Source of the DNA: a virus | Virus record (IMG/VR): IMGVR_UViG_3300032053_000032 | Coordinates: 1-64,000 of that record | DNA length: 64,000 nt | Direction: 5' to 3' (one strand) | Shown here: positions 1 to 49,513 of the stretch, piece by piece | Layout of the letters: every line of letters begins with the position of its first letter | Numbering within the stretch: position 1 is the stretch's first letter | Position numbers and translations under genes: made by a program | The notes under the pieces: generated by a model | The model's database searches: none | What the model saw: the letters and a program-made list of their open reading frames with translations, nothing else | What the model was told of the DNA's origin: nothing

Positions 1-1
1 A

Positions 2-172
2 GACGAGCACGGACTCGTCGAGTTCATGGACGGCACGGTCACCGACTACCTCTGGCGCCGTAGCGCGGGGATGTCGGCGTGTCTGGAGTGCTCAACGAAG
101 GACCTGCCGTCTGCGGTAGGAATCGCGCGTGAGTGGATCCTCGGCCTCATCGAGGCCGCCGCAGGTTTCTAG
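2..172 (+). CDS. 3' end of a hypothetical protein (truncated by window start)
   Basis: Frame +2 is open from the window edge (DEHGLVEFMDGTVTDYLW...) to TAG at 170-172. Confidence 0.5.
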   Translation, partial: DEHGLVEFMDGTVTDYLWRRSAGMSACLECSTKDLPSAVGIAREWILGLIEAAAGF

Positions 173-218
173 CCCGCCGTGAAGTGACACCGCCCGCTCC
201 TTGTGCCATCCTGTCGGC

Positions 219-668
219 ATGGGACAGCAAGCGAAGGCCAAGGCGCAAGTTCGCCACATGAAGAAGCTGTTCGGTGGCAAGGAGACAGCCTTCGAGGTTC
301 ACCAGAAATACGGCTTCCGCATGGCGTGCTGCGCTCCGGGAACCAACAAGAACAATAGGTGCGGCGGACCCCCGGTCATTCGCATCCGCGTGTACACGCC
401 GTACCTGGAGCTGTTCTCCAAGCACCCGGAGTTCTGCATCCAGATCGCCGCCGGGAACCGCGATGGTTCCTACGTTCCCACGGTCGACACGAAGTGGGGA
501 CCGATGGTGCTCCTCTCCGACATGACCGCCTGCAAGTTTCACCAGCAGAGCGCCGAGCGCGCCGCCGCCCACCCTCCAAAAGGCCTGCAGACCTGGGTGA
601 CCATCGACCGCGGCCCGACCGCCGAGAAGGTCGTGGGTCAGGTTCCTCTAGTCGGCGTGAGTTCGTAG
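219..668 (+). CDS. hypothetical protein
   Basis: ORF with genome-typical codon usage; ATG at 219 lies 6 nt after GTGACA-N17-CATCCT (leaderless-type promoter). Confidence 0.65.
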   Translation: MGQQAKAKAQVRHMKKLFGGKETAFEVHQKYGFRMACCAPGTNKNNRCGGPPVIRIRVYTPYLELFSKHPEFCIQIAAGNRDGSYVPTVDTKWGPMVLLSDMTACKFHQQSAERAAAHPPKGLQTWVTIDRGPTAEKVVGQVPLVGVSS

Positions 669-1358
669 GTGAGCGCGCAGACCGACCATGAGGCTATCGC
701 GGATGTGATGAACGGTGGCGTGGGTACTCCAACGGATGCGTCACATGCAGAACTAGCACACCATCAGCATGTGCGGATGTATCGCGCTCGCGCTGAGGAA
801 GCAAAACGTCGTGGTGACAAGCCACAGCAAGCTCTGGCGGAACGCCTAGCTGCGGCGCATCACCGCGTTCGCGCCGCGCTTCTTACCAACCCAGGTAGTT
901 TCAGCAAAGCTGACTATAACGCAGCCCATGCCGTTGCGTCGCCAAAATCCCTCATGGGTGCCACTTCCAAAGTAAACATGGTTGATGGTGATCGCCGCGG
1001 GGCCTCGATGAACCTACTGCATCCAGGTCTGCATTCAGAGGCACACTTTGAGAGTGCAAAGGCAGAAGCAGGTGGAAGCCCCGCGCTACATGCGCAGCTT
1101 CGTGATGAGAACATACAGGCCGCAAGAAAGATGGTTGATAGCAACAAACCTGCCGCCGCTGAGCACCTGAAACTCGCCGCCGCTCACGAGAAGCTGCGGC
1201 ATGACGCCGAAGGTCCAGAGCGTCCAGAGCAGAAGTCGCAGGGCGCGAAGTTAAAGCAGCTCGCGTCTTCCAAGAAGAAGGGGGACAGGGAAGCTCCTGG
1301 CAAGATCGCCGCCGGTCGTGAGTACGCACGTGATGACAAGGGGGAGTTTTCGTCGTGA
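669..1358 (+). CDS. His/Ala-rich helical protein ending in RDDKGEFSS, possibly an internal virion protein
   Basis: 229 aa; C-terminal motif shared with 15374-16285; located in head module. Confidence 0.55.
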   Translation: MSAQTDHEAIADVMNGGVGTPTDASHAELAHHQHVRMYRARAEEAKRRGDKPQQALAERLAAAHHRVRAALLTNPGSFSKADYNAAHAVASPKSLMGATSKVNMVDGDRRGASMNLLHPGLHSEAHFESAKAEAGGSPALHAQLRDENIQAARKMVDSNKPAAAEHLKLAAAHEKLRHDAEGPERPEQKSQGAKLKQLASSKKKGDREAPGKIAAGREYARDDKGEFSS

Positions 1359-1810
1359 GCGATCTCCTTGCCAAGCATGTCCGCGCCAAGCGTGAGAAGG
1401 ACGACGACGAGAAGGACGAGCTTCTCTCCGATCAGGAGAAGGGCGCGCGCCAGAAAATCATCGACGGCGCCAAGGAAGCTGGCGCTACCCTCGACCGTCC
1501 TGACGCCCGCGGTGGGCTGCCGCCGTCTCTGGTGCTTGGCGCCTTCCGTCGCGACAAGTTCGCCTGCACCGACTGCGGATCGCAGAAGGACATCGGACCG
1601 CACCACATCGGTGGGATCCCAGACACCAAGAAGAAGTCCCTCGCAGGGCACAAGAACAAGCTGTCGAACATCTCCACGCTCTGCGTGAAGTGCCACGACA
1701 AGGAGCACAACAAGGCTCGCGAGGAGGGGCTTGACTCCAGCCAGGTGCTCCCGAAGGGCGACGTCGGAACCGACCGCGATCACGGTGACAAGCCGGTAGC
1801 ACGGGTCTGA
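1355..1810 (+). CDS. HNH endonuclease
   Basis: RRDKFACTDCG...HHI...NKLSNISTLCVKCHDKEH, the classic CxxC-HH-N-CxxCH HNH signature. Confidence 0.85.
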   Translation: MSDLLAKHVRAKREKDDDEKDELLSDQEKGARQKIIDGAKEAGATLDRPDARGGLPPSLVLGAFRRDKFACTDCGSQKDIGPHHIGGIPDTKKKSLAGHKNKLSNISTLCVKCHDKEHNKAREEGLDSSQVLPKGDVGTDRDHGDKPVARV

Positions 1811-1895
1811 CGTGATGTCGCTAAAACCCTTCGGGGCCTTCTCGCCGAATCCCGTCGGGTGAGAAGAAGTAGCTGTCCTGCCCAAGCCTAGCGGA

Positions 1896-3980
1896 ATGGT
1901 CGACTTCACTACCTTCGCGCCAGGTGCCCGTATCATGCTCGTGCTGCCCTCCGGTCCAGCTCTAGCCGAGGCGCTACGTGCTTGCTGGGCAAACGGCCTG
2001 GTCGCGATCCCACGCGATCCCAAGAGCAAGCAGAACGTCCAGGTCGCGGAGCACGCGCAGGTCCACGCGCGCGTAGATGTTGACGGAGTTCATCCGAATC
2101 ACGTAGTTCATCCACTCTCGCCGCTCCACGACCGCCTCATCCTTTACACGTCCGGCTCTACAGGAGATCCGAAGGGCGTCGTGCTTACCGAGGCCGCGCT
2201 GAAGTCGAACGCGGTCCAGGTCGCGAACCGTCACGACTTCGCCTCGGGCGCGCACGCTACCTGCTTGTCACTGCATCACTGCAACGCGATCTGCGGGTCG
2301 CTCTACGGAACGATGCTCACGGACTCGCGCCTGATCATCTCGGGCAGCAGCGACATGACCGCGTACTTCTCGGCCATCGAGACGCACCGTGTATGCACCG
2401 CTACCATCGTGCCCGCTCTCCTTGAGAAGCTCCTCGCCTCGCCTCCGCGCTGGCCTTCCCGCCTCAAGTACCTGATCACGGCTGCGGCCCCGCTCACCCG
2501 CGACCTCGCGCGCCGCTTCCGTGATGTCTACGGTGAAGAGCGTCTCGTGCAGGGGTACGGGATGACCGAGGCGGTCAACTTCTCGACCACTATGCCGAAC
2601 CTCGCCGGGAAAGCTTGGTCAGCTGCCTACGTGAACCAGCACCCACCGGTCGGCGCCCCGCTGCCTGGAACCGAGCTGCGCGTGGAAGATGGCGAGGTTC
2701 AGGTGCGCGGCTTGAACTTGATGCGGGAATACTGGCGGAACCCGGAAGCTACAGCGGAAAAGTACACCTCGGACGGATGGTTCAAGACCGGAGACGTCGG
2801 GTTCGTAGGGGATGACGGACTTCTCCGCTTGAGCGGGCGCATCTCGGAGGGGATCAACTGGCGTGGCGCGATGACCTACCCGACAGACTTCGAGGAGTCC
2901 TGGGCGCTCAATTCACCCGGCTGCGCGATATCAGAGCGTGGTGTCTGTGTTCCTGTTGTTGACCCGGACGGACGCGAGCACCCCGCGGTAGTCGGCTGCT
3001 TGACAGCCGTCGCGCTCGGCTTGAACGACCCACCACCGATGGCGATGGACTCCGGTCCCGTGCAGGGGACGTTGACGTTCAAACCTCGCCGCCGCTCGAT
3101 GTCCACGGCCCTTACCTGTCGCTTCGATGATGACGTGCGCTACGAAGCGTTGCGCATTACTGCGTTCGAGGTGTACTCCATGATGGACTACCAGAGCCTA
3201 GACGCTCTCCAGATTTCGTCAGTGCAGGAACGCTGGATCGTAGATCGGGCTCTCGAATTTCGCCAGAAAATGACCGGCGCGCGGCTCGGTGACAAGCGGC
3301 TTGCCAGAATCGGCGGCGCCTGGAACGACGTCTGGAGCGAGGCCCTTCAAGCTCTCGGCACGCAGTGGGGTGCGCACGATGCGGAGCACCCTAAGCGGAT
3401 CATCACCGAGATCCCCAGCCTATGGCGCCGCCTCATGCACGAGTGGCCGATGGGCGTCTACGGTGACCTCGTGGCGGACATCATCGCTCGTCGAGGTCTA
3501 CTTCATGGCCGCGCGCTGGAGTTCGGGACTGGGGTAGGGAACACGTCCGGTCTTCTCAACCGCGCTAAGTTTGACGAGCTGTTCCTCACGGATTTGCAGC
3601 AGAGCACGAAGCGTGGTGTGCGGGCGTGGAACTTCGACTGCGGGGAACCTTATACCGTGGGGCTAGACCTCATATTCGGGACGAACGCCTTGCACTGTTC
3701 CAAGAGCCCCACGAAGGCCCTGCACACCATGTTCACGATGCTCAAGCCAGGAGGGCACCTTGTAATTGGGGAAGGTGAAGCTCACCCGTATCGTGACGAG
3801 CCCTGGGCACTGCACGCGTTCTTCGGCCTCTTCGACGGCTGGTGGGACGTCGGCGGGTTCCTAACGCGCCGCGGATGGGTCGAGCTGCTTGAGCGCACCG
3901 GCTTCGTCGATGTAGGATGGAGCGTGTTCCGTGCCGGCAGGTTTGATCTCGGAGGTGCTCTATGGGCGCGCAGGCCCTAG
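1896..3980 (+). CDS. ANL-family adenylating enzyme (acyl-CoA/acyl-AMP ligase) fused to a class I SAM methyltransferase
   Basis: Ligase motifs ILYTSGSTGDPKGV (A3), QGYGMTE (A5), GWFKTGDVG (A7) and TFKPRR (A10 Lys); methyltransferase motifs ALEFGTGVG, DLIFGTNALH, LKPGGHLVIGE and FGLFDGWW. Confidence 0.85.
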   Translation: MVDFTTFAPGARIMLVLPSGPALAEALRACWANGLVAIPRDPKSKQNVQVAEHAQVHARVDVDGVHPNHVVHPLSPLHDRLILYTSGSTGDPKGVVLTEAALKSNAVQVANRHDFASGAHATCLSLHHCNAICGSLYGTMLTDSRLIISGSSDMTAYFSAIETHRVCTATIVPALLEKLLASPPRWPSRLKYLITAAAPLTRDLARRFRDVYGEERLVQGYGMTEAVNFSTTMPNLAGKAWSAAYVNQHPPVGAPLPGTELRVEDGEVQVRGLNLMREYWRNPEATAEKYTSDGWFKTGDVGFVGDDGLLRLSGRISEGINWRGAMTYPTDFEESWALNSPGCAISERGVCVPVVDPDGREHPAVVGCLTAVALGLNDPPPMAMDSGPVQGTLTFKPRRRSMSTALTCRFDDDVRYEALRITAFEVYSMMDYQSLDALQISSVQERWIVDRALEFRQKMTGARLGDKRLARIGGAWNDVWSEALQALGTQWGAHDAEHPKRIITEIPSLWRRLMHEWPMGVYGDLVADIIARRGLLHGRALEFGTGVGNTSGLLNRAKFDELFLTDLQQSTKRGVRAWNFDCGEPYTVGLDLIFGTNALHCSKSPTKALHTMFTMLKPGGHLVIGEGEAHPYRDEPWALHAFFGLFDGWWDVGGFLTRRGWVELLERTGFVDVGWSVFRAGRFDLGGALWARRP

Positions 3981-4363
3981 TTGAGGGCGCTCTTCTTGGG
4001 ATGATCAGGATGGACGCCACGGAGGCGCGCATGTTTGCGCTCCTGTACGACCGCAACCCAGTGCATGTTGAAGTCGCCCGCAGGAACGCTATCTTGCCGG
4101 AAGACACGGTGAGCGGTCTGTACGTCGTCGCGAAGGCGCTAGATCTGCTTCAAGTTGCCGCCCCCGATCACACCGCGCGCGTGCTCTGCGCCAGCAAGAT
4201 GTCCGTCCGCTGGCTCGCTCCTGTGATCGGAGATCAGTGGGTTTCGCTCCGTATCGAGACGGTCATCATGGAACGGACGTCCAGAATCTTCCTGCGGCTG
4301 CTGCTCCGCGTTGGTGATGTCCCGGTAGCCGAGATCGACCTTCACCAGATCCTGGCCGTGTAG
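3962..4363 (+). CDS. MaoC-like hot-dog fold (R)-hydratase/dehydratase
   Basis: FALLYDRNPVH matches the MaoC D-x-N-P-x-H dyad; later VRWLAPVIGD; GGAGGT RBS at 3951-3956. Confidence 0.7.
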   Translation: MGAQALVEGALLGMIRMDATEARMFALLYDRNPVHVEVARRNAILPEDTVSGLYVVAKALDLLQVAAPDHTARVLCASKMSVRWLAPVIGDQWVSLRIETVIMERTSRIFLRLLLRVGDVPVAEIDLHQILAV

Positions 4364-5316
4364 TGGCCCGCCGCGACTACGAAGCCGCCATCGAGGAGCA
4401 CCGGCAGAAGCTTCACCGGATCCTCGACCGTCGTGGCGTAGTACAGATGAAACGGCTGTACCAGGACGCCCACGCCGAGCTAGAGCGGAAGCTCACCGCC
4501 GTAGCTGGTCGCAAGGCGACCATGACCTCGTTTCAGCAGAAGCTGCTACTCCTTCAGGTGAAGCACGGGCAGCAGGACATCTCGAAGCGCATGACCAAGG
4601 GCCTTTCTGCCGCGAGCGCCGATGCTCAGGTCGAGTCGCTCCACTCCCTTACGAAGACCGTCTCCCGCGCGGCCCCGCAGTTCCGTGGGGCGCAGGTTTC
4701 GCTACCTATCGAGGAGGCTGCGAGGTTCCGCGGCATCATCGACAAGCGCCGGACGTCGTTGCTTCAGGCGCACGCCACGTCCATGTCGACACATAGTGCC
4801 CGCGTCGTGAAGAAGATGGAGACGGAGCTGTCCAACTCACTCATGTCCGGTGAGTCGAATGACGAGGCAATCCAGCGCGTAGTTGGAGTAGCCGACGTCG
4901 AGTGGTGGCAGGCCGAGAGAATTGTCAAAACCGAGCTTGCGTGGGCCTACAATTCGACGCAGGCCGACGGTATCGCCGCGAGCGCGGAAGCTGTTCCCGG
5001 ACTCATGATGCGCTGGACTGAGAACTGCGACGATACGTCAAGCGCGCCTCTCGATGACCGTGTCGGCGTAGACTCCATCGCGATGCACGGACAGGTTGCG
5101 AAGCCGAACGGCGGGATGTTCACCTGCCCACCTACTGCGCCCCTCCCCGACGCGAAGGGGCAGACACGCGTGTCGGACTCGCTCTCCGGTGAAAGCTGGG
5201 CGTTTCCCCCCAACCGTCCGAACGATCGTGCTGCGCTCTCCCCTTGGCACCCGGACTGGGGTGTTCCTGGCTGGGTATGGCGTGGAAGACGTGTTCCCGT
5301 CACCTCAGTTCGATGA
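4363..5316 (+). CDS. head morphogenesis protein (phage Mu F / SPP1 gp7-like minor head protein)
   Basis: AERIVKTELAWAYN, DDRV...HGQV and PPNRPNDR motifs; upstream of scaffold and capsid. Confidence 0.8.
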   Translation: MARRDYEAAIEEHRQKLHRILDRRGVVQMKRLYQDAHAELERKLTAVAGRKATMTSFQQKLLLLQVKHGQQDISKRMTKGLSAASADAQVESLHSLTKTVSRAAPQFRGAQVSLPIEEAARFRGIIDKRRTSLLQAHATSMSTHSARVVKKMETELSNSLMSGESNDEAIQRVVGVADVEWWQAERIVKTELAWAYNSTQADGIAASAEAVPGLMMRWTENCDDTSSAPLDDRVGVDSIAMHGQVAKPNGGMFTCPPTAPLPDAKGQTRVSDSLSGESWAFPPNRPNDRAALSPWHPDWGVPGWVWRGRRVPVTSVR

Positions 5317-5351
5317 ACGTGCTACCTTGCGATGAGATCAGGAGGTTTGAG

Positions 5352-5879
5352 ATGGCGCTTCTCCCGAAGGCACTGAAAGCATTCTCCGCGAAGGGTGGCG
5401 GCAAGCCCAAGATGCCGTTCGGCAAGAACGCCAAGAAGGGCGACGGCAAGAACCCGTTTGCCAAGAAGGCCGCCGCCGAGTCCGATCCTGACGATGAGGA
5501 TGACGAGGAGCCGGACGAGGACGAGGACGAGGACGAGGAGGAGGGTGGCCAGAAGGACGACGGAACCCACCCCGAGCCCGACGGCGACGAGGGTCAGGGC
5601 GGCGTCGGAGATGACGACGGCGACGAGTACAACGACGAGAAGATCGCCAGCATCGCGGCGCAGGTTGCCGCGGGTACGCTCCCGGACGATCCAGACCTCG
5701 CGGACGCCGCCGAGAGCTACAACCCGGAGACGGACGGGACGCCGTCCTGGGTGTCCGATGAAGCTCTCTGGGAGAAGGCCAAGGGTGTCGTCGACCCCGA
5801 AGGCGCCGGAGCGAAGTACGACACCCCGTGGGTGGTCGTCGCGGCAGTCTTCGAGGAGATGGGTGGCGCGCACGTTTAA
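5352..5879 (+). CDS. acidic hypothetical head-module protein
   Basis: GGAGG RBS; Lys-rich N-terminus, long D/E tract, C-terminal ALWEKAK...EMGG domain. Confidence 0.7.
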   Translation: MALLPKALKAFSAKGGGKPKMPFGKNAKKGDGKNPFAKKAAAESDPDDEDDEEPDEDEDEDEEEGGQKDDGTHPEPDGDEGQGGVGDDDGDEYNDEKIASIAAQVAAGTLPDDPDLADAAESYNPETDGTPSWVSDEALWEKAKGVVDPEGAGAKYDTPWVVVAAVFEEMGGAHV

Positions 5880-5889
5880 CACCGCGCAC

Positions 5890-5918
5890 TTGCACCCGTA
5901 ACGTCCTGCCTGTACCAT
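5890..5918 (+). promoter_or_regulatory. sigma70-type promoter for the micropeptide array (leaderless)
   Basis: TTGCAC(5890)-N17-TACCAT(5913), then 7 nt to ATG 5926. Confidence 0.6.
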
Positions 5919-5925
5919 CACCTTC

Positions 5926-6174
5926 ATGTCGATCAAGTTCCTCCCCTACACGGGACCAGAATCGGTGGTTCCGGATGACGCGCAGCTCGCGCCGTCAGCG
6001 GAACGCGTGTACGACGAGACGATCAACATCCCGGAAGCGACGATGCTCCGCGCGATGACTCGTCCGAACTGGGACAACCCGATCATGGCCCCCGCGTACA
6101 CGGAAGCCGAGCAGCTTCCAGCCCCGCAGGCGCTCGGGCAGAACGCATCCCCTTTCAAGCTCGGAGGCAAGTAG
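5926..6174 (+). CDS. micropeptide 1 (C-terminal SPFKLGGK)
   Basis: 82 aa; conserved C-terminal PFKL motif. Confidence 0.75.
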   Translation: MSIKFLPYTGPESVVPDDAQLAPSAERVYDETINIPEATMLRAMTRPNWDNPIMAPAYTEAEQLPAPQALGQNASPFKLGGK

Positions 6175-6175
6175 C

Positions 6176-6400
6176 ATGGCTGACGACCACACCGTGAAGC
6201 GCGGCCCGCGCGCGAAGGCGCTCTCCGGATCGCTGATCTCCCCCGAAGGCAACGACATGGGCGGGAAGTACGACCCGCAGGCTGGTCACCCCCCGATGGA
6301 CGGCCTGCCAACGTCGGAGTACAAGGGGCTCACACCCGGTATCAACGGCAGCGCCTCTGCTCCCGAGCACACCACGCCGTTCAAGCTTGGAGGAACCTGA
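6176..6400 (+). CDS. micropeptide 2 (C-terminal TPFKLGGT)
   Basis: 74 aa; GGAGG RBS; NDM..KYD and PFKL motifs. Confidence 0.75.
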   Translation: MADDHTVKRGPRAKALSGSLISPEGNDMGGKYDPQAGHPPMDGLPTSEYKGLTPGINGSASAPEHTTPFKLGGT

Positions 6401-6564
6401 TGTACGACTGCAACGACATGAGCGACGTCGGCCAGGACAAGAAGTACCAGCAGCCGACGGACAAGTACGACGCCGATCAGGGCAAGTACAAGCAGCAGGA
6501 GATCGCCCTCAACGGCAAGGCTCCCGCCCCCGCGCACTCGACCCCGTTCAAGCTGAACGGCTGA
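6400..6564 (+). CDS. micropeptide 3 (C-terminal TPFKLNG), not in the ORF track
   Basis: Hand translation MYDCNDMSDVGQDKKYQQPTDKYDADQGKYKQQEIALNGKAPAPAHSTPFKLNG (54 aa); TGATG coupling and GGAGG RBS. Confidence 0.8.
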   Translation: MYDCNDMSDVGQDKKYQQPTDKYDADQGKYKQQEIALNGKAPAPAHSTPFKLNG

Positions 6565-6582
6565 AAGGACAAGGACAAGACG

Positions 6583-6780
6583 ATGGCCGACAACACGAAC
6601 GACATGAGCAACGTGGGGCAGGACAAGCAGTACAAGCAGCCCACCGAGAAGTACGACGCCGATCACGGCAAGTACAACGACCCGATCGATGGTCAGCGCG
6701 GAACCGATGAGGGGAACATGTTCCCCCTCGACGCGCTCCCCATGGCTCCTGCGCCGAACCCCTTCAAGCTCGGCAAGTAG
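6583..6780 (+). CDS. micropeptide 4 (C-terminal NPFKLGK), paralog of peptide 3
   Basis: 65 aa; shares NDMSxVGQDKxYxQPTxKYDADxGKY with 6400-6564. Confidence 0.8.
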   Translation: MADNTNDMSNVGQDKQYKQPTEKYDADHGKYNDPIDGQRGTDEGNMFPLDALPMAPAPNPFKLGK

Positions 6781-6789
6781 CAGGACCGC

Positions 6790-7179
6790 GTGGCCGACAT
6801 CCTCCACCTGAGCGGTACGGTAGACGTGCAGCCGGCTTCTGGATTTCCATCCGGTGATCCGTCTACCGACATCCCGCTCGATGAGACGGTCACCCTCAAG
6901 CGTCAGATGCAGTCGGGTCGCGTCGACCTCGACACGGACGCGACCAAGGTCGTCAACTTTGGTGACCTCGCGGGCGCGAACGTCGTGATCCTACGCGCTA
7001 ACTTTGGCAAGGTGAAGGCTCGCTTCACCTCTGCGGATGGAGCGGTGCAGTCGATCCCTGTCGACCCGCTCTTGACGGTCATCTCGCTCAGCGTTCCGTT
7101 CACCGCGCTCGACTTGACGCGTGTGGCCGGTCAGGGGAATACGGTGCAGGTCAACTACTCGCTCGGCGAGAAAGCGTAA
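6790..7179 (+). CDS. hypothetical beta-rich virion protein
   Basis: 129 aa, AGGA RBS, head module. Confidence 0.65.
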   Translation: MADILHLSGTVDVQPASGFPSGDPSTDIPLDETVTLKRQMQSGRVDLDTDATKVVNFGDLAGANVVILRANFGKVKARFTSADGAVQSIPVDPLLTVISLSVPFTALDLTRVAGQGNTVQVNYSLGEKA

Positions 7180-7231
7180 CGGCTCGATAGTCGTTTCGTG
7201 ATAGAACAAGCAAAAAGGAGCAAGTGACACG

Positions 7232-7627
7232 ATGAGCACCCTTACCAAGACTGACACCATCAAGGACGAGCTGAACAACGCACTCCCAGGCAAGGTCGAG
7301 CCCGCGCTGTTCAAGCTCGGCCTCGGCGACTTGCTCACGCCGATCGTCGACGTCTCTGGTGTGATCACCGCGACCGCGAGCTACAAGCTCGCCAAGAAGG
7401 TGGTCAACGCGCTCAAGATCCAGGTGATCGCGTCCGGCACCGCCGGAGCGATCGGCCAGTACATCCTGGGCGAGGTCGGCATCGATCCGGGCGGCGCGGG
7501 CACCGCCGTCGGCGTCTGTACGCTGGGGGCCGACTTCCAGACGATCACGTTCCTGCACACCGTGACGAGCGTCAAGATCACGTACTTCGGAACGCCGGAC
7601 CTCTCCAAGCCGTTCCTGACCATCTAG
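7232..7627 (+). CDS. putative head decoration / structural protein
   Basis: 131 aa, AAGGAG RBS, highly expressed-type codon bias, just upstream of scaffold. Confidence 0.55.
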   Translation: MSTLTKTDTIKDELNNALPGKVEPALFKLGLGDLLTPIVDVSGVITATASYKLAKKVVNALKIQVIASGTAGAIGQYILGEVGIDPGGAGTAVGVCTLGADFQTITFLHTVTSVKITYFGTPDLSKPFLTI

Positions 7628-7801
7628 GTTCATGCAGCGAGCCCGCCGCGCTCGGTCATCATGCTGATGCTCGGGTGTGCGGCGGGATCACCAGACAACA
7701 TGGCCGCTTCGGACGTCGGCAAAATCTCGTCGTGCTCGTAACGCGCACGGCGGCGGTAACAGCCGGATGACCGGACGGGAAAACAGACGAAGGAGCAGAC
7801 C

Positions 7802-8614
7802 ATGCCGACCGATGAAGAGATCGCCGCCGCGAAGGCGGCAGAAGAGGCAGCCGCGAAAGCAGTTGCCGAGAAGCCCGTTGAGGGTACGCAGCCGACCCCG
7901 GATGGTGGGCTCAAGATCCTGAGCGCCGGTGCCTACAAGCGCATCAAGGACGACGCCGCCGCGAAGGGCGAGCGCCGCGCGCTGGAGAAGATGGCCCGCG
8001 AATCGGGTTTCGGCTCCGTTGAGGAGTTTCAGAAGGCCGCGAAGGGCTTCAAGGCTGGAACGACCACGCCGAAACCTGCCCCTGCTCCGCAGCAGAACGG
8101 GCAGCAGGCTCGCGATCCCGGCAGAGCACCCGCAGGGATGAGCAACCGCGAGAAGAACGCGTGGGACAAGGAGCGCGTCAAGATCCTCGCCGACTTCGAG
8201 GTGGTCAAGAAGCAGTCCGCCCTGAACGACAAGAAGTATCGCAAGGCGCGCAAAGACCTGGAGAACAAGGAGACGGAGATGGCGCTCCGCGAAGCTGCGG
8301 CAGCTGTCGGAATCCGCGACCTTGACTACGCCGTGCGCCTGCTCGAAAAGCACGTCGAGAATAAGGAAGAGAAGGATCTGGCCGGCTTCGATGAGGTCAA
8401 GTTCTTCGAGGGGCTGCGTACCCCGCATCCCTACCTGTTCGGCGAGCGCGTGACCCCGGCGCATACCGGAACCACCGCGCAGCCCCCGGTTCCGCCGAAG
8501 CCTGGCGACGCCGCCGCAGCTCATGCTCAGAACGGCAAGTTCGACGCGAGAAGCGCGACCGCAGAAGAAGTGCAGAAGCAGCTCGCCAAGCGCGGGATTC
8601 AGCCCGGCACCTAG
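7802..8614 (+). CDS. capsid scaffolding protein
   Basis: Charged coiled coil, HPYLF motif, Pro-rich tail, immediately upstream of the major capsid gene. Confidence 0.75.
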   Translation: MPTDEEIAAAKAAEEAAAKAVAEKPVEGTQPTPDGGLKILSAGAYKRIKDDAAAKGERRALEKMARESGFGSVEEFQKAAKGFKAGTTTPKPAPAPQQNGQQARDPGRAPAGMSNREKNAWDKERVKILADFEVVKKQSALNDKKYRKARKDLENKETEMALREAAAAVGIRDLDYAVRLLEKHVENKEEKDLAGFDEVKFFEGLRTPHPYLFGERVTPAHTGTTAQPPVPPKPGDAAAAHAQNGKFDARSATAEEVQKQLAKRGIQPGT

Positions 8615-8714
8615 AACTTGGGTGTTTTCGCGCTTTTTCCCGAGCTTGCACAGTGATAGTGTAGTTACCTAGTCAACAGGCGGGGTTTCCCGTCACAAGC
8701 TCGGAGGCTTTACA

Positions 8715-10115
8715 GTGGCAGATTTCAGCACGATCCTTCAGTCCCCAGACATCCGCGCCATCGTTCAGGATGGCTTCCTGGAGCGCGCCTTCCACGACGG
8801 CCTCTTCCCCAAGATGCTGTTTCGTGGAGAGGCGACTCCGGTCCTCTGGCCCGCTCACGCCGGTGACAGCGCGATCTTCACGGGCGTCGCTCCCGTGAAG
8901 AAGAAGATGAAGCCGATCGTGCCTGGGCAGGACCCCGGCGCTTCCGACTACCAGAAGGAGCAGTGGACCGCTGTCCTGCAGACGTACGGCGACTCCATCC
9001 CGACGCACATGCCGTCGTCGCTCGTCGCCATCGCGTCGCTGTTCCTCCGCAACGCTCAGCAGCTCGGCCTCGGCGCCGCGCGCACGCTGAACTCGCACGT
9101 CCGCAACCGCCTCTACAACGCGGGGCAGTCCGGCTGGACCGTTGCCGACGGCGCGCAGGTCGCGGTGACGGTGCTCCGCGTGAAGCGCCTCAACGGCTTC
9201 ACCACGGCGCGCCAGACGGGTGCGAACGCCACCGTTCGCTACGATCTCGTTTCTGCGGCGAACCCGCTCGCAGTCCTCATCTTCAACACGGGCACGGGCC
9301 TGGAGCAGTCGGTCAACGTCATCGGCTTCACCGCCGACAACTCGGGCGATCAGACCGGCCCCGGCACGATCACCGTGGACGCGGCCGTCACCGTGTCGAA
9401 CCGCGACTACGTGATCTCCGTCGATCGCACGTTCCTGGTGCGCGTCGGCGGTGGCAACAAGGTCGACTCGATCACCTCGGCCTCGCTCCTCAAGCTCGCC
9501 GACCTCCGCTCGGGCGTGTCGCGCCTTCAGCAGGAGAACGTCCCGGAGCACCCGGATGGGTACTTCCACTGCCACCTCGACCCCACGTCGCAGGCGCAGG
9601 TCTTCAACGACGCTGAGTGGCAGCGCCTGCTCACGTCGATGCCCGATGGCTTCCAGTACAAGTCGCTGGCGATCGGCCAGCTCCTTGGCGCGGTCTACTT
9701 CCGCAACTCGGAGTGCCCGCAGATCGAGACGATCGACCCGAACGACGGCGTCACCTTCTCGCTCGACGACAACTTCGCGGGCGAGCTGACCGCGAACGGC
9801 CTCGCGTCCGGCGTCAAGGTGCACCGCCCGCTGTTCACCGCGCAGGGCGGGATCATGGAGTACTACCAGGACCTCGGCGCCCTCATCACCGATGCGGGCA
9901 TCAACGGCAAGGTCGGGCAGTTCCAGATCACGAACAACGGCATCGAGGTCATGAGCGACCGTGTTCAGCTCATCATCCGCGCGCCGCTCAACAAGTTCCA
10001 GGACACGGTCGACACGACCTACAAGTTCCAGGGCGACTGGCCGGTCCGCACGGACTCGACGACCGGCGACGCGGCTCGCTACAAGCGCCAGCTCGTCATC
10101 GAACATGGGGCATGA
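8715..10115 (+). CDS. major capsid protein
   Basis: 466 aa, GGAGG RBS, strongest codon bias in the window, follows scaffold, followed by a terminator; C-terminal PLNKFQDTVDTTYKF resembles HK97-fold P-domain ends. Confidence 0.8.
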   Translation: MADFSTILQSPDIRAIVQDGFLERAFHDGLFPKMLFRGEATPVLWPAHAGDSAIFTGVAPVKKKMKPIVPGQDPGASDYQKEQWTAVLQTYGDSIPTHMPSSLVAIASLFLRNAQQLGLGAARTLNSHVRNRLYNAGQSGWTVADGAQVAVTVLRVKRLNGFTTARQTGANATVRYDLVSAANPLAVLIFNTGTGLEQSVNVIGFTADNSGDQTGPGTITVDAAVTVSNRDYVISVDRTFLVRVGGGNKVDSITSASLLKLADLRSGVSRLQQENVPEHPDGYFHCHLDPTSQAQVFNDAEWQRLLTSMPDGFQYKSLAIGQLLGAVYFRNSECPQIETIDPNDGVTFSLDDNFAGELTANGLASGVKVHRPLFTAQGGIMEYYQDLGALITDAGINGKVGQFQITNNGIEVMSDRVQLIIRAPLNKFQDTVDTTYKFQGDWPVRTDSTTGDAARYKRQLVIEHGA

Positions 10116-10133
10116 TTAAAGCGTTTTCTTACT

Positions 10134-10165
10134 AAGAAGCCCGCCAAGTGCGGGCTTCTTGCTTT
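10134..10165 (+). terminator. intrinsic terminator after major capsid gene
   Basis: AAGAAGCCCGC-CAAGT-GCGGGCTTCTT hairpin followed by T-rich bases. Confidence 0.75.
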
Positions 10166-10187
10166 CAGCCTTATCGCCTTGTAGACT
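10159..10187 (+). promoter_or_regulatory. sigma70-type promoter upstream of the structured non-coding region
   Basis: TTGCTT(10159)-N17-TAGACT(10182). Confidence 0.55.
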
Positions 10188-10194
10188 CGATCCC

Positions 10195-10590
10195 ACTTGA
10201 ACCTTCATCTTCAAAGTTCGACCGTGCGTGTCACGGTTGACATGGGCAGCGGACCCGGTTTTACCGGACCATCACGACGGATCCACGATGTGGAGCCGCG
10301 GCTGCCCCCCAGTCTGTGTGGGGACCCTCGTCGGTGCCTGCAACATCAACAGACTGGTATCGAGCCTTCGGGCTCAACCCGAAAGACCACACCTACGCTT
10401 GTCGGACGGCGTGGTCTTTCACCCCGGCTGCTGTTCTTCGGAACAAGGGTCACATGTTCGTCGTCGCTGATACGTCAGCACCGCGCTTGTCGCGTTTCGA
10501 CGTCCCGACCTGAGACGGAGCGACCGTATTACGGCAACCCTACGGACGGGTAGTCCGGTAAGCCGTCGTCATCGCTCCGTCTCGCGCCAC
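10195..10590 (+). ncRNA. candidate large structured ncRNA or long structured leader
   Basis: About 400 nt without a convincing ORF; many stems including two C(UUCG)G tetraloop hairpins (10362-10375, 10432-10445), a 10-bp stem (10381-10390/10411-10420) and a 12-bp stem (10512-10523/10572-10583). Confidence 0.55.
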
Positions 10591-48122: not shown

Positions 48123-48521
48123 CTAGTCCTCCCTGGTGTAGTCGATCGCGTTGTAGTGACTGGCGACGCCGTCGAGCCAGTCTCCCGTCGGAATCTCGAT
48201 GTTGCTCCACTTCCGATCGTGGCTCATCACGTACCCGAGGACGGTGGAGCCGTCCAGCAGGTGAATCAACTGACGGTGGTACAGGCTAGGAGCACCTTCC
48301 AGGCGATCGAGGCGCGCCAGGGTCTTGTCGTCCACCTGGTAGACTTCCCCGACGATGGGCACCCCGCGCCACGTCCAGGTGATGCAAGGGTACCCACCGA
48401 GGTGCCACATCTGCCAGGTGGGCTCCGTGCGCGCGTGACGCAAGAAGGTAGCGCCGGCCAGGTGGTAGTGGTTTCCCTGACCAGAGCGGAGCGTGCCGTA
48501 CACAAAGACTTCGGTGAGCAT
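48123..48521 (-). CDS. gamma-glutamylamine cyclotransferase-like protein (GGACT/YtfP)
   Basis: VFVYGTLRSG, GYPC, GEVY and LDRLEG...Y-R motifs. Confidence 0.9.
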   Translation of the reverse strand: MLTEVFVYGTLRSGQGNHYHLAGATFLRHARTEPTWQMWHLGGYPCITWTWRGVPIVGEVYQVDDKTLARLDRLEGAPSLYHRQLIHLLDGSTVLGYVMSHDRKWSNIEIPTGDWLDGVASHYNAIDYTRED

Positions 48522-48544
48522 CGCGATCTCCTGTCTTGGGCGGG

Positions 48545-49513
48545 TTAGCTGTTGTCGTCCGACGAGGCGGCCGCGATGACCGCTGCGGTGGCAAGCTGGA
48601 AGGACACGGAACCGCTGGAGGCCGCAGTGGCGACGGGCGCCGCGGTAAAGGCCGCCATCAGGTGGGTGCGCACGGTGCTGAACTCCTCACCCTTGCTGAA
48701 GCCGAGCTTGCTGACCAGGTACGTCATGCCCGCGCGGTCCGCCGTGATGGGCGTCGAGAGGGGGATGGAGGTCTTCCAGGTCTTGCAGCGAGCGACCATC
48801 GCGAGGCAGAGCTGGATGTACGCCTTGACTTTGCCAGCGTGAAGGGTCGAGTTGAAGAGGCGGAACTCCACGGTGCCCTTGGTCCAGACCGCGTGAAGGT
48901 TCAGGGCCTGGTAGCGGCTGCCATCGTAGTGCGTGGGGTAGTTCTCGACACGGCCGTACCAGGCGCGTGAGAGGCCGCGCGAATCCTTGGCGATGGTAGC
49001 GCGCTCCGAAGCAGGAGCGCGGCGCAGACGCTCGCAGAGGGTCTTGCCAAGCTTCTTGCAGTACTGTTCGCGACGGGGAAGGACCGCGAGCGACGTGAAG
49101 AGCAGATCCTGGTAGTAGTGCATGAGCGACGCGAGGTTGATGGTGTTCTGCGCCGTGAGCGACTCGGCGCCGACATGGACGTGGATGCCACACGACTCGT
49201 CAACCTGCGCGCCGCAAGCGCGAACGGCGCGAACAACCGCCTGAACCGTGTCGAGGTCGCTGTACACGAGGATGGGCGAGACGACTTCCGCGCCACCGTT
49301 ACAGGGAAGCGACCCGTCGCGCATCGACTTCCAGACGCGCCCGTCGGTGGCAGTAACGATCCAGGTATCGTAGCTATCGTGCGTGTGGGTGACGACGCCA
49401 CCGACGACCGACTGAACGGCCTCTGCAACAACCTGGCGGCTCTTGCCGAACGTTTCGACTTCGAGGCCAAAGCGGAAAGACTTCATCGACTCGGTCTGGT
49501 TCGCGGTGGTCAT
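48545..49513 (-). CDS. putative amidoligase (COOH-NH2 ligase, Amidoligase_2)
   Basis: FGLEVE, DGSL, EVVSP, SCGIHVHVG, RYQALN and TVEFRLFNSTL motifs. Confidence 0.9.
   Translation of the reverse strand: MTTANQTESMKSFRFGLEVETFGKSRQVVAEAVQSVVGGVVTHTHDSYDTWIVTATDGRVWKSMRDGSLPCNGGAEVVSPILVYSDLDTVQAVVRAVRACGAQVDESCGIHVHVGAESLTAQNTINLASLMHYYQDLLFTSLAVLPRREQYCKKLGKTLCERLRRAPASERATIAKDSRGLSRAWYGRVENYPTHYDGSRYQALNLHAVWTKGTVEFRLFNSTLHAGKVKAYIQLCLAMVARCKTWKTSIPLSTPITADRAGMTYLVSKLGFSKGEEFSTVRTHLMAAFTAAPVATAASSGSVSFQLATAAVIAAASSDDNS

Follow-up and report, generated by a model that had tools for sequence, protein, structure and literature searches.

The DNA analyzed here is the first 64,000 nucleotides (the window) of a complete 85,027-bp virus record from sediment (IMGVR_UViG_3300032053_000032), which carries 127-bp terminal repeats. 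Near its left end, on the plus strand, lies a two-gene cassette in which an adenylating enzyme of the ANL type is fused to a methyltransferase (MT) and is followed by a small hotdog-fold protein. The fusion gene (694 aa) occupies positions 1896..3980 and the gene for the 133-aa hotdog protein positions 3962..4363, and the two open reading frames (ORFs) share 19 nt. A GGAGG ribosome-binding site for the hotdog gene, read from the sequence, is located within the 3'-terminal part of the fusion gene (3950..3954), 6–7 nt before the ATG at 3962. The hotdog gene in turn shares 1 nt (TAGTG) with the gene for a 317-aa MuF-like minor head protein (4363..5316, plus strand). Both overlaps had been given in a preliminary description of the window made without database searches, and both were confirmed. 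To the left, the cassette is bordered by an HNH endonuclease gene (1355..1810, plus strand).

Contigs from other sediment runs span the junction between the HNH and fusion genes (X3, 1604–3962; X4, 1694–2039) and the junction between the fusion and hotdog genes (X5, 3838–3993), in each case with zero differences. Because independent runs bridge the junctions without differences, they are not an assembly chimera. The nearest non-self homologue of the fusion is 45–46% identical and the base composition of the cassette matches that of the genome, so that recent passive capture from a host, raised together with chimeric assembly in the preliminary description, is likewise excluded. A scan of positions 1–10500 for promoters and terminators gave nothing above the shuffled expectation.

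The ANL part comprises residues 1–408 of the fusion (1896..3119, plus strand), with an N-terminal domain to approximately residue 312 and a C-terminal subdomain from approximately 313 to 408. The Pfam AMP-binding profile (PF00501) matches with 143.9 bits (cut-off 29.9), with the alignment confined to positions 155–384 of the profile. The characteristic motifs are A3 (YTSGSTGDPKG, residues 84–94, the P-loop, encoded at 2145–2177), A5 (GYGMTE, 220–225), A7 (TGD, 298–300), A8 (GR, 314–315) and the A10 lysine (K396, codon 3081–3083). All are invariant or nearly so in an alignment of the fusion with 25 full-length homologues of 36–46% identity (26 sequences, alignment A1), which bears out the earlier statement that an ANL enzyme with intact A3, A5, A7 and A10 is fused to a methyltransferase. 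The ATG at 1896 was favored over the database start at 1935 because R12 is invariant across the family. An AlphaFold model of the whole fusion (pLDDT 88, pTM 0.84) contains the two-domain ANL fold. Note that the structures of the phage proteins used here and below are all predictions.

Among solved structures, profile and model comparisons place the ANL half closest to acyl-CoA ligases. When a family profile was compared with the Protein Data Bank (PDB), the best match was feruloyl-CoA synthetase (8wev, E 5.5e-51), followed by FadD13 (3r44), oxalate-CoA ligase (5ie0) and MatB (4fut). The same acyl-CoA ligase neighbors were returned by Foldseek for the model, with TMt values of 0.65–0.70. These enzymes are the top profile and structure matches to residues 10–415 and share the complete A3–A10 series, but approximately 50 of their N-terminal residues have no counterpart in the phage enzyme, which instead adds a C-terminal methyltransferase of 285 residues. 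Profile alignments start at approximately residue 50 of the solved enzymes, and the N-terminus is therefore shortened family-wide. No CoA-ligase model of NCBIfam reaches its cut-off, the best match (NF004837) scoring 143 bits where 476 are required.

The top Foldseek matches to the whole fusion model were TioS A-M-A (5wmm) and pyochelin synthetase (7emy), because a single chain holds both folds in each case. In these interrupted adenylation (A) domains of non-ribosomal peptide synthetases the methyltransferase sits inside the C-terminal subdomain of the A domain and acts on a carrier-bound aminoacyl group. In the phage fusion, by contrast, it begins after the A10 lysine K396, and neither condensation nor peptidyl carrier protein (PCP) domains are present. 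An interrupted A-MT enzyme of this type was therefore ruled out, given the position of the methyltransferase behind K396 and a genome that contains no PCP.

The remainder of the fusion, residues 410–694 (3123..3977, plus strand), consists of a helical lid and a Rossmann core. It matches Methyltransf_23 in Pfam with 36.6 bits (cut-off 27). The motif for binding S-adenosylmethionine (SAM), LEFGTGVGN, has a conserved E542-x-G544-x-G546-x-G548 that corresponds to the class I GxGxG core. With phmmer, these residues found only C-methyltransferases (C-MTs) of polyketide synthases (PKSs) in the PDB, namely CurJ (E 1.4e-4), LovB CMeT, DszA, PsoF and PksCT. A model of the domain (pLDDT 87, lid helices at model residues 4–123) was aligned with solved structures using VIA-align. 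Z scores were 25.0 for PsoF (6kjg), 22.6 for CalH (7dmb), 22.3 for PksCT CMeT (5mpt), 22.1 for DszA (6cca), 21.9 for CurJ (5thy) and 21.9 for AprA MT2 (6d6y), with 267–273 of the 285 residues aligned at root-mean-square deviations of 2.8–3.8 and sequence identities of 13–19%. The alignment (model range 1–285) also superposes the lid on its counterparts in PsoF, CalH, CurJ and DszA, whereas ordinary class I methyltransferases gave Z values of at most 16 and matched the core alone. Foldseek agrees with the assignment to PKS C-MTs.

His600 (codon 3693–3695) and Glu626 (3771–3773) are invariant in the 26 sequences of alignment A1 and in the 21 of alignment A4. They line up with the region of the NVLH...YE dyad in CurJ and have the same 26-residue spacing. 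The high Z scores over lid and core, together with the invariant His-Glu dyad, make the identification of this half as a PKS-type C-methyltransferase well supported by sequence and modeled structure. The preliminary description had arrived at the same assignment from short motifs, all of which are found in the translation. The phage domain thus retains the GxGxG SAM motif and the His-Glu dyad of trans-acting or embedded PKS C-MTs. Unlike them, it lies outside any PKS module, is fused behind an ANL enzyme, and belongs to a genome that encodes no acyl carrier protein.

The second gene of the cassette encodes a single hotdog domain that is probably a MaoC-type hydratase/dehydratase, judging from sequence and predicted structure. 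PF01575 (MaoC) matches with 24.8 bits (E 1.7e-5), below its cut-off of 27. An ESM Atlas model compared with clusters of MaoC dehydratases gave TM values of 0.77–0.84, the best being 0.83–0.84. Like the MaoC (R)-specific enoyl-CoA hydratases, the protein folds as one hotdog domain and carries the Asp/His pair of D-x-N-P-x-H; within its DRNPVH these are Asp30 (4049–4051) and His35 (4064–4066). Unlike them, it is short (133 aa), has Tyr for Gly before the Asp, and has neither Ala nor Ser directly after His+5, so the full hydratase-2 motif is matched in part. Both D30 and H35 are kept in each of the two homologues that the searches found, and they are invariant in alignment A5 (three sequences). 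A homologue search with the 133-aa protein returned only the protein itself, PHROGs contained nothing for it, and comparison of a hotdog profile with the PDB gave only a marginal match to an acyl-CoA hydrolase (E 0.025).

No PP-binding carrier domain was found across the whole 85-kb genome, although control genomes were positive, and no ketosynthase (KS) or acyltransferase (AT) genes neighbor the fusion. The absence of a carrier protein noted in the preliminary description therefore extends to the complete record. As no carrier is encoded by the phage, the activated acid is proposed to be accepted by CoA or by a carrier of the host.

Taken together, we consider the two genes to be an accessory cassette by which a small acid would be converted to a thioester, methylated at its alpha carbon and then passed to the hotdog enzyme, with the product feeding the pathway of a phage cupin described below. 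We assign this reading a probability of roughly 0.55. In the first step the ANL half would adenylate a small carboxylic acid and transfer it to a thiol, either that of CoA or that of a host holo-carrier protein. The C-methyltransferase, using His600/Glu626 and SAM, would then methylate the acidic alpha carbon of the thioester; methylation at such a carbon would imply a malonyl-type or beta-keto-type substrate. Finally, the translationally coupled MaoC-type enzyme would hydrate or dehydrate the acyl thioester, or cleave it, and the product would be a small methyl-branched acid or an acyl donor. This product probably serves the same pathway as the phage cupin, and perhaps the operon of cupin, PAPS reductase and ParB genes, rather than virion assembly.

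Genes that recur beside the fusion at other loci bear on this proposal. A hotdog partner occurs in four independent forms: the MaoC-type protein of this phage; a MaoC-type protein directly after the fusion in the viral loci L005/L006 and in L125; a 4HBT thioesterase encoded immediately behind a fusion of 945 aa at the bacterial locus L096 (Pfam E 3.4e-11); and a 4HBT domain appended at the C-terminal end of the fusion protein P0029. Since hotdog enzymes act on acyl thioesters and recur beside the fusion, the product of the fusion is argued to be a thioester.

The second recurrent partner is a cupin with the pattern YIDGC[TS]D ... HxHPS ... HPDxD. Its gene immediately precedes that of the fusion in L004, L005/L006, L007 and L116 and is found in the same cluster at the bacterial locus L111. 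In IMG/VR this cupin is present at 471 loci or more, and among the best 80 there are 53 in which it stands at the head of a module with an IbrA-like PAPS reductase (DUF3440) and an IbrB-like ParB protein. In L005/L006 and L125 the pair of fusion and hotdog genes lies exactly between cupin and IbrA. The phage studied here carries such a module at 71.0–75.1 kb, beyond the end of the window. Genes for ParB_N (247 aa), Cupin_2 (238 aa), PAPS_reduct (347 aa) and PAPS_reduct+DUF3440 (398 aa, IbrA-like) are located at genome positions 70996–75069 (L092:6996–11069) and converge on a gene for an IbrB-like ParB protein of 190 aa. The cupin gene itself runs from 73600 to 74316 on the minus strand. Both complete fusion-bearing phage genomes (G000 and G004) carry cupin and IbrA, and G312, a 77%-complete relative, is without fusion, cupin and IbrA. 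Comparison of a cupin profile with the PDB gave a marginal match only (oxalate oxidase, E 0.013), and neither PHROGs nor NCBIfam contains a family for this cupin.

On the minus strand of the window (48123–49513), a gene for Amidoligase_2 (178 bits) and one for a GGACT gamma-glutamyl cyclotransferase (88 bits) are neighbors. Homologues of both adjoin IbrB in L005, and an amidoligase is found near the cupin module in 32 of the best 80 viral loci.

Several observations weigh against the proposed pathway. Known PKS C-MTs act on carrier-bound beta-keto or malonyl thioesters, and this phage has neither a ketosynthase nor a carrier. The MaoC call lies below the Pfam cut-off and is accompanied by a partial hydratase-2 motif. 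In the low-GC phages L002, L004, L114 and L116 the gene after the fusion encodes an unrelated viral protein of approximately 220 aa instead of a hotdog protein. The cupin of the present phage is 11.7 kb from the cassette, and the 41.6-kb fragment L002 contains no cupin. Finally, bacterial contexts vary, including the L106 cluster, an Acyl_transf_3 gene at L104, and housekeeping genes in Amycolatopsis.

The unrelated viral protein (216–224 aa) is conserved downstream of the fusion in these low-GC phages (L002:12012–12686, L004:11995–12645, L114:1224–1883 and L116:5090–5752) and has no match in Pfam or PHROGs. It has one look-alike cluster in the ESM Atlas, in which 17% of members carry Asp_Arg_Hydrox.

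The bacterial loci form the basis of the most probable alternative, which is nevertheless doubtful: that the cassette is a minimal biosynthetic cluster, carried as a phage moron, whose product is a free small molecule released from the infected cell for signaling, as an antimicrobial or against host defenses. The theme common to the bacterial contexts is small-molecule acyl chemistry, and some of these homologues lie in small-molecule clusters with exporters (L106 and L120). At L106 (6147–13455) an operon encodes a class II aminoacyl-tRNA synthetase-like protein, the ANL-MT fusion, an ATP-grasp protein, a FemAB-like GNAT protein and a major facilitator superfamily (MFS) protein; it may be a cluster for a small aminoacyl or peptide natural product. 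L120 combines ANL, MFS, MT and NTP_transf_5 genes, and L096 is a three-gene island amid purine genes. On Pseudonocardia plasmids, an ANL-only homologue (48% identity) has a cupin and a type I PKS as neighbors. In the phage, however, no exporter or further tailoring genes adjoin the cassette, and phage contexts consist of nucleotide and DNA genes rather than biosynthetic clusters. The fusion lies beside DNA polymerase, ParB and PAPS-reductase genes in L005/L006 (the latter record being a complete phage of 60 kb), beside nuclease, polysaccharide deacetylase, glycosyltransferase and DNA ligase genes in L002, and near a dCMP deaminase gene in L007 and L116.

Homologues consisting of the lid and methyltransferase alone also occur. 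In L099 such a gene is accompanied by asparagine synthases, an acetyltransferase and a glycosyltransferase, and others are found with NTP_transf_5. On a 310-kb bacterial metagenome contig (L111:7580–20363) a lid-plus-MT homologue is clustered with SIS, FAD oxidoreductase and NTP_transf_5 genes, three NDK-like genes, a second methyltransferase, PLD, a cupin of the phage type and an ABC exporter. The L111 cluster looks like nucleotide-derived small-molecule chemistry.

A different use of the acyl product was considered for the cupin module itself. PAPS-reductase/ParB-type pairs such as DndC/DndB, which function in DNA phosphorothioation, and BrxP are DNA-modification enzymes (PMC12839542). The cassette could be an optional add-on to the cupin/IbrA/IbrB module that supplies a methyl-branched acyl group for a new hypermodification of DNA or nucleotides, as an acylated base or a nucleotide-linked intermediate. 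Such a role would explain both the position of the cassette between cupin and IbrA in some phages and its travel with the cupin in complete genomes. Most cupin loci, however, have no ANL-MT fusion (one of the best 80 has one), and we regard the hypermodification role as unlikely. Searches of the literature on IbrA, IbrB and PAPS reductases in phages turned up no description of this architecture.

It is improbable that no thioester is formed at all, with the ANL half only adenylating its substrate, the methyltransferase acting on O or N (to give, for example, a methyl ester) and the hotdog protein being an unrelated neighbor. The lack of a carrier protein and of any NCBIfam CoA-ligase match at cut-off would fit this scheme, and the location of the methyltransferase directly after A10 makes action on the adenylate possible. 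Structural neighbors of the methyltransferase, however, are C-MTs and not PKS O-methyltransferases or carboxyl methyltransferases, and hotdog partners, which act on thioesters, recur beside the fusion and are sometimes joined to it.

At the metagenome locus L104, the beginning of the fusion gene is overlapped by a gene for a membrane acyltransferase (Acyl_transf_3, 859 aa). This arrangement suggests that the cassette might provide acyl groups with which the host envelope is altered, in its O-antigen, peptidoglycan or lipid, so that superinfection, for instance, is blocked. We consider such a role quite improbable, as this neighbor occurs at one locus only, none is near the cassette in the present phage, and the phage looks lytic-type, with its own replication machinery.

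The surroundings of the cassette were compared with those in related phages. Reading the genome as a circle, the large terminase gene (76283–77749) is followed by the portal gene (80726–82348), small ORFs, the HNH gene and the fusion; on the right, the hotdog and MuF-like ORFs are followed by small ORFs, the scaffold gene (7802–8614) and the capsid gene (8715–10115). The HNH call is based on a Pfam HNH score of 22.6 bits (cut-off 21.4), on PHROG HNH families and on synteny with L223, L224 and L227. For the MuF-like protein, PF04233 is sub-threshold (19.8 bits against 29.6) and matches were obtained to the minor-head-protein PHROGs phrog_115 (E 2.1e-6) and phrog_2841. The call is backed by synteny, with portal, HNH, MuF, scaffold and capsid genes in the same order in relatives.

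Six phage contigs with capsid proteins 54–64% identical share this head-gene order. In L224 and L227 the MuF gene follows the HNH gene after approximately 300 and 190 bp, respectively, L223 has no space for a 2.5-kb insert between the two, and in L225 the gap between portal and MuF is only approximately 1 kb. The MuF homologues behind HNH in relatives are 29–56% identical. None of the six capsid-related records, which are fragments of which the largest is 77% complete, contains the fusion. With the MuF-like protein as the only query, a viral scan returned no relatives; the capsid protein did retrieve some.

The cassette is thus a 2.5-kb lineage-specific insertion between the HNH and MuF genes. 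As relatives have the same head module without it, the cassette is not part of the head program. The preliminary description had it coupled into the morphogenesis operon; the physical overlap with the MuF gene stands, but functional membership does not. Coupling to the MuF gene is real, and its best explanation is the site at which the cassette was inserted. A close operon link with head genes is not, taken alone, a sign of a role in morphogenesis. Nor did the suggested association with head genes and PFKL peptides recur, since none adjoin the fusion at the other phage or metagenome loci examined, where the neighbors are cupin, hotdog and DNA- or nucleotide-metabolism genes.

MuF-adjacent positions are sites of virion-delivered cargo, and this, together with the gene overlaps, the coupling to the MuF-like gene and the location in the portal-to-capsid block, counts for a late-morphogenesis cassette. 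Least probable of all, even so, is that the ANL enzyme is a protein or peptide acyl ligase with virion proteins or the PFKL-tagged micropeptides nearby as its targets, because relatives possess the same head module without the cassette, no other fusion locus has adjoining head genes or PFKL-type peptides, and the ANL half has its closest relatives among small-acid CoA ligases.

The distribution of the fusion was determined by an exhaustive profile-free search, which found approximately 50 clusters of full-length fusions at 50% identity. Named members come from Stigmatella, Photorhabdus, Pasteurella, Streptomyces, Micromonospora and Amycolatopsis, and eight loci in IMG/VR carry the fusion. GenBank phages yielded no full-length fusion but only ANL-like pieces covering at most 41%, and plasmids yielded none beyond the ANL-only homologue next to a PKS. 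Neither NCBIfam, in which nothing exceeded any cut-off, nor PHROGs has a specific family for the fusion. PHROGs likewise had no match to the small neighboring ORFs. A scan of genome contigs with generic ANL patterns found ordinary acyl-CoA ligases only. Among 401 sampled Myxococcota genomes none had the MT family, but this zero should not be considered evidence of absence because only 6 candidates were scored per genome.

In a quick tree with SH-aLRT support, three phage lineages (the present phage; L002/L004/L116; and L005) fall apart among bacterial sequences, and several independent transfers are therefore suggested. The fusion family is small and, in phages, appears polyphyletic. Five of 301 Pseudonocardiaceae genomes had a match, situated amid housekeeping genes. 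Amycolatopsis-type copies (L220–L222, from Pseudonocardiaceae genomes G263, G089 and G195) have a degenerate P-loop (TPGSG---R), and L222 is a pseudogene split over three frames. In Pseudonocardiaceae the family appears to be in decay, and these copies are little guide to function.

No description of an ANL-methyltransferase didomain, or of this architecture, was found in the literature. What is new is a carrier-less ANL/C-methyltransferase didomain in a phage; the kinds of enzyme themselves are known. Phages rarely carry enzymes of the polyketide or acyl-activation type. If active, the cassette would provide a compact route for C-methylating a small acid via a transient thioester, which would be relevant to enzymologists and pathway engineers. 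The main value of the finding is the testable link to the cupin, which offers a handle on the widespread cupin/PAPS-reductase/ParB module.

Two minor observations concern the border genes. A 33-nt stretch within the HNH gene (window positions 1667–1699) recurs in several unrelated contigs, with all four runs compared contributing. In one X3 contig, matches to the MuF gene flank positions 4924–5050 on both sides (region 4894–5096), with 122 other letters between; the contig probably stems from a related phage strain.

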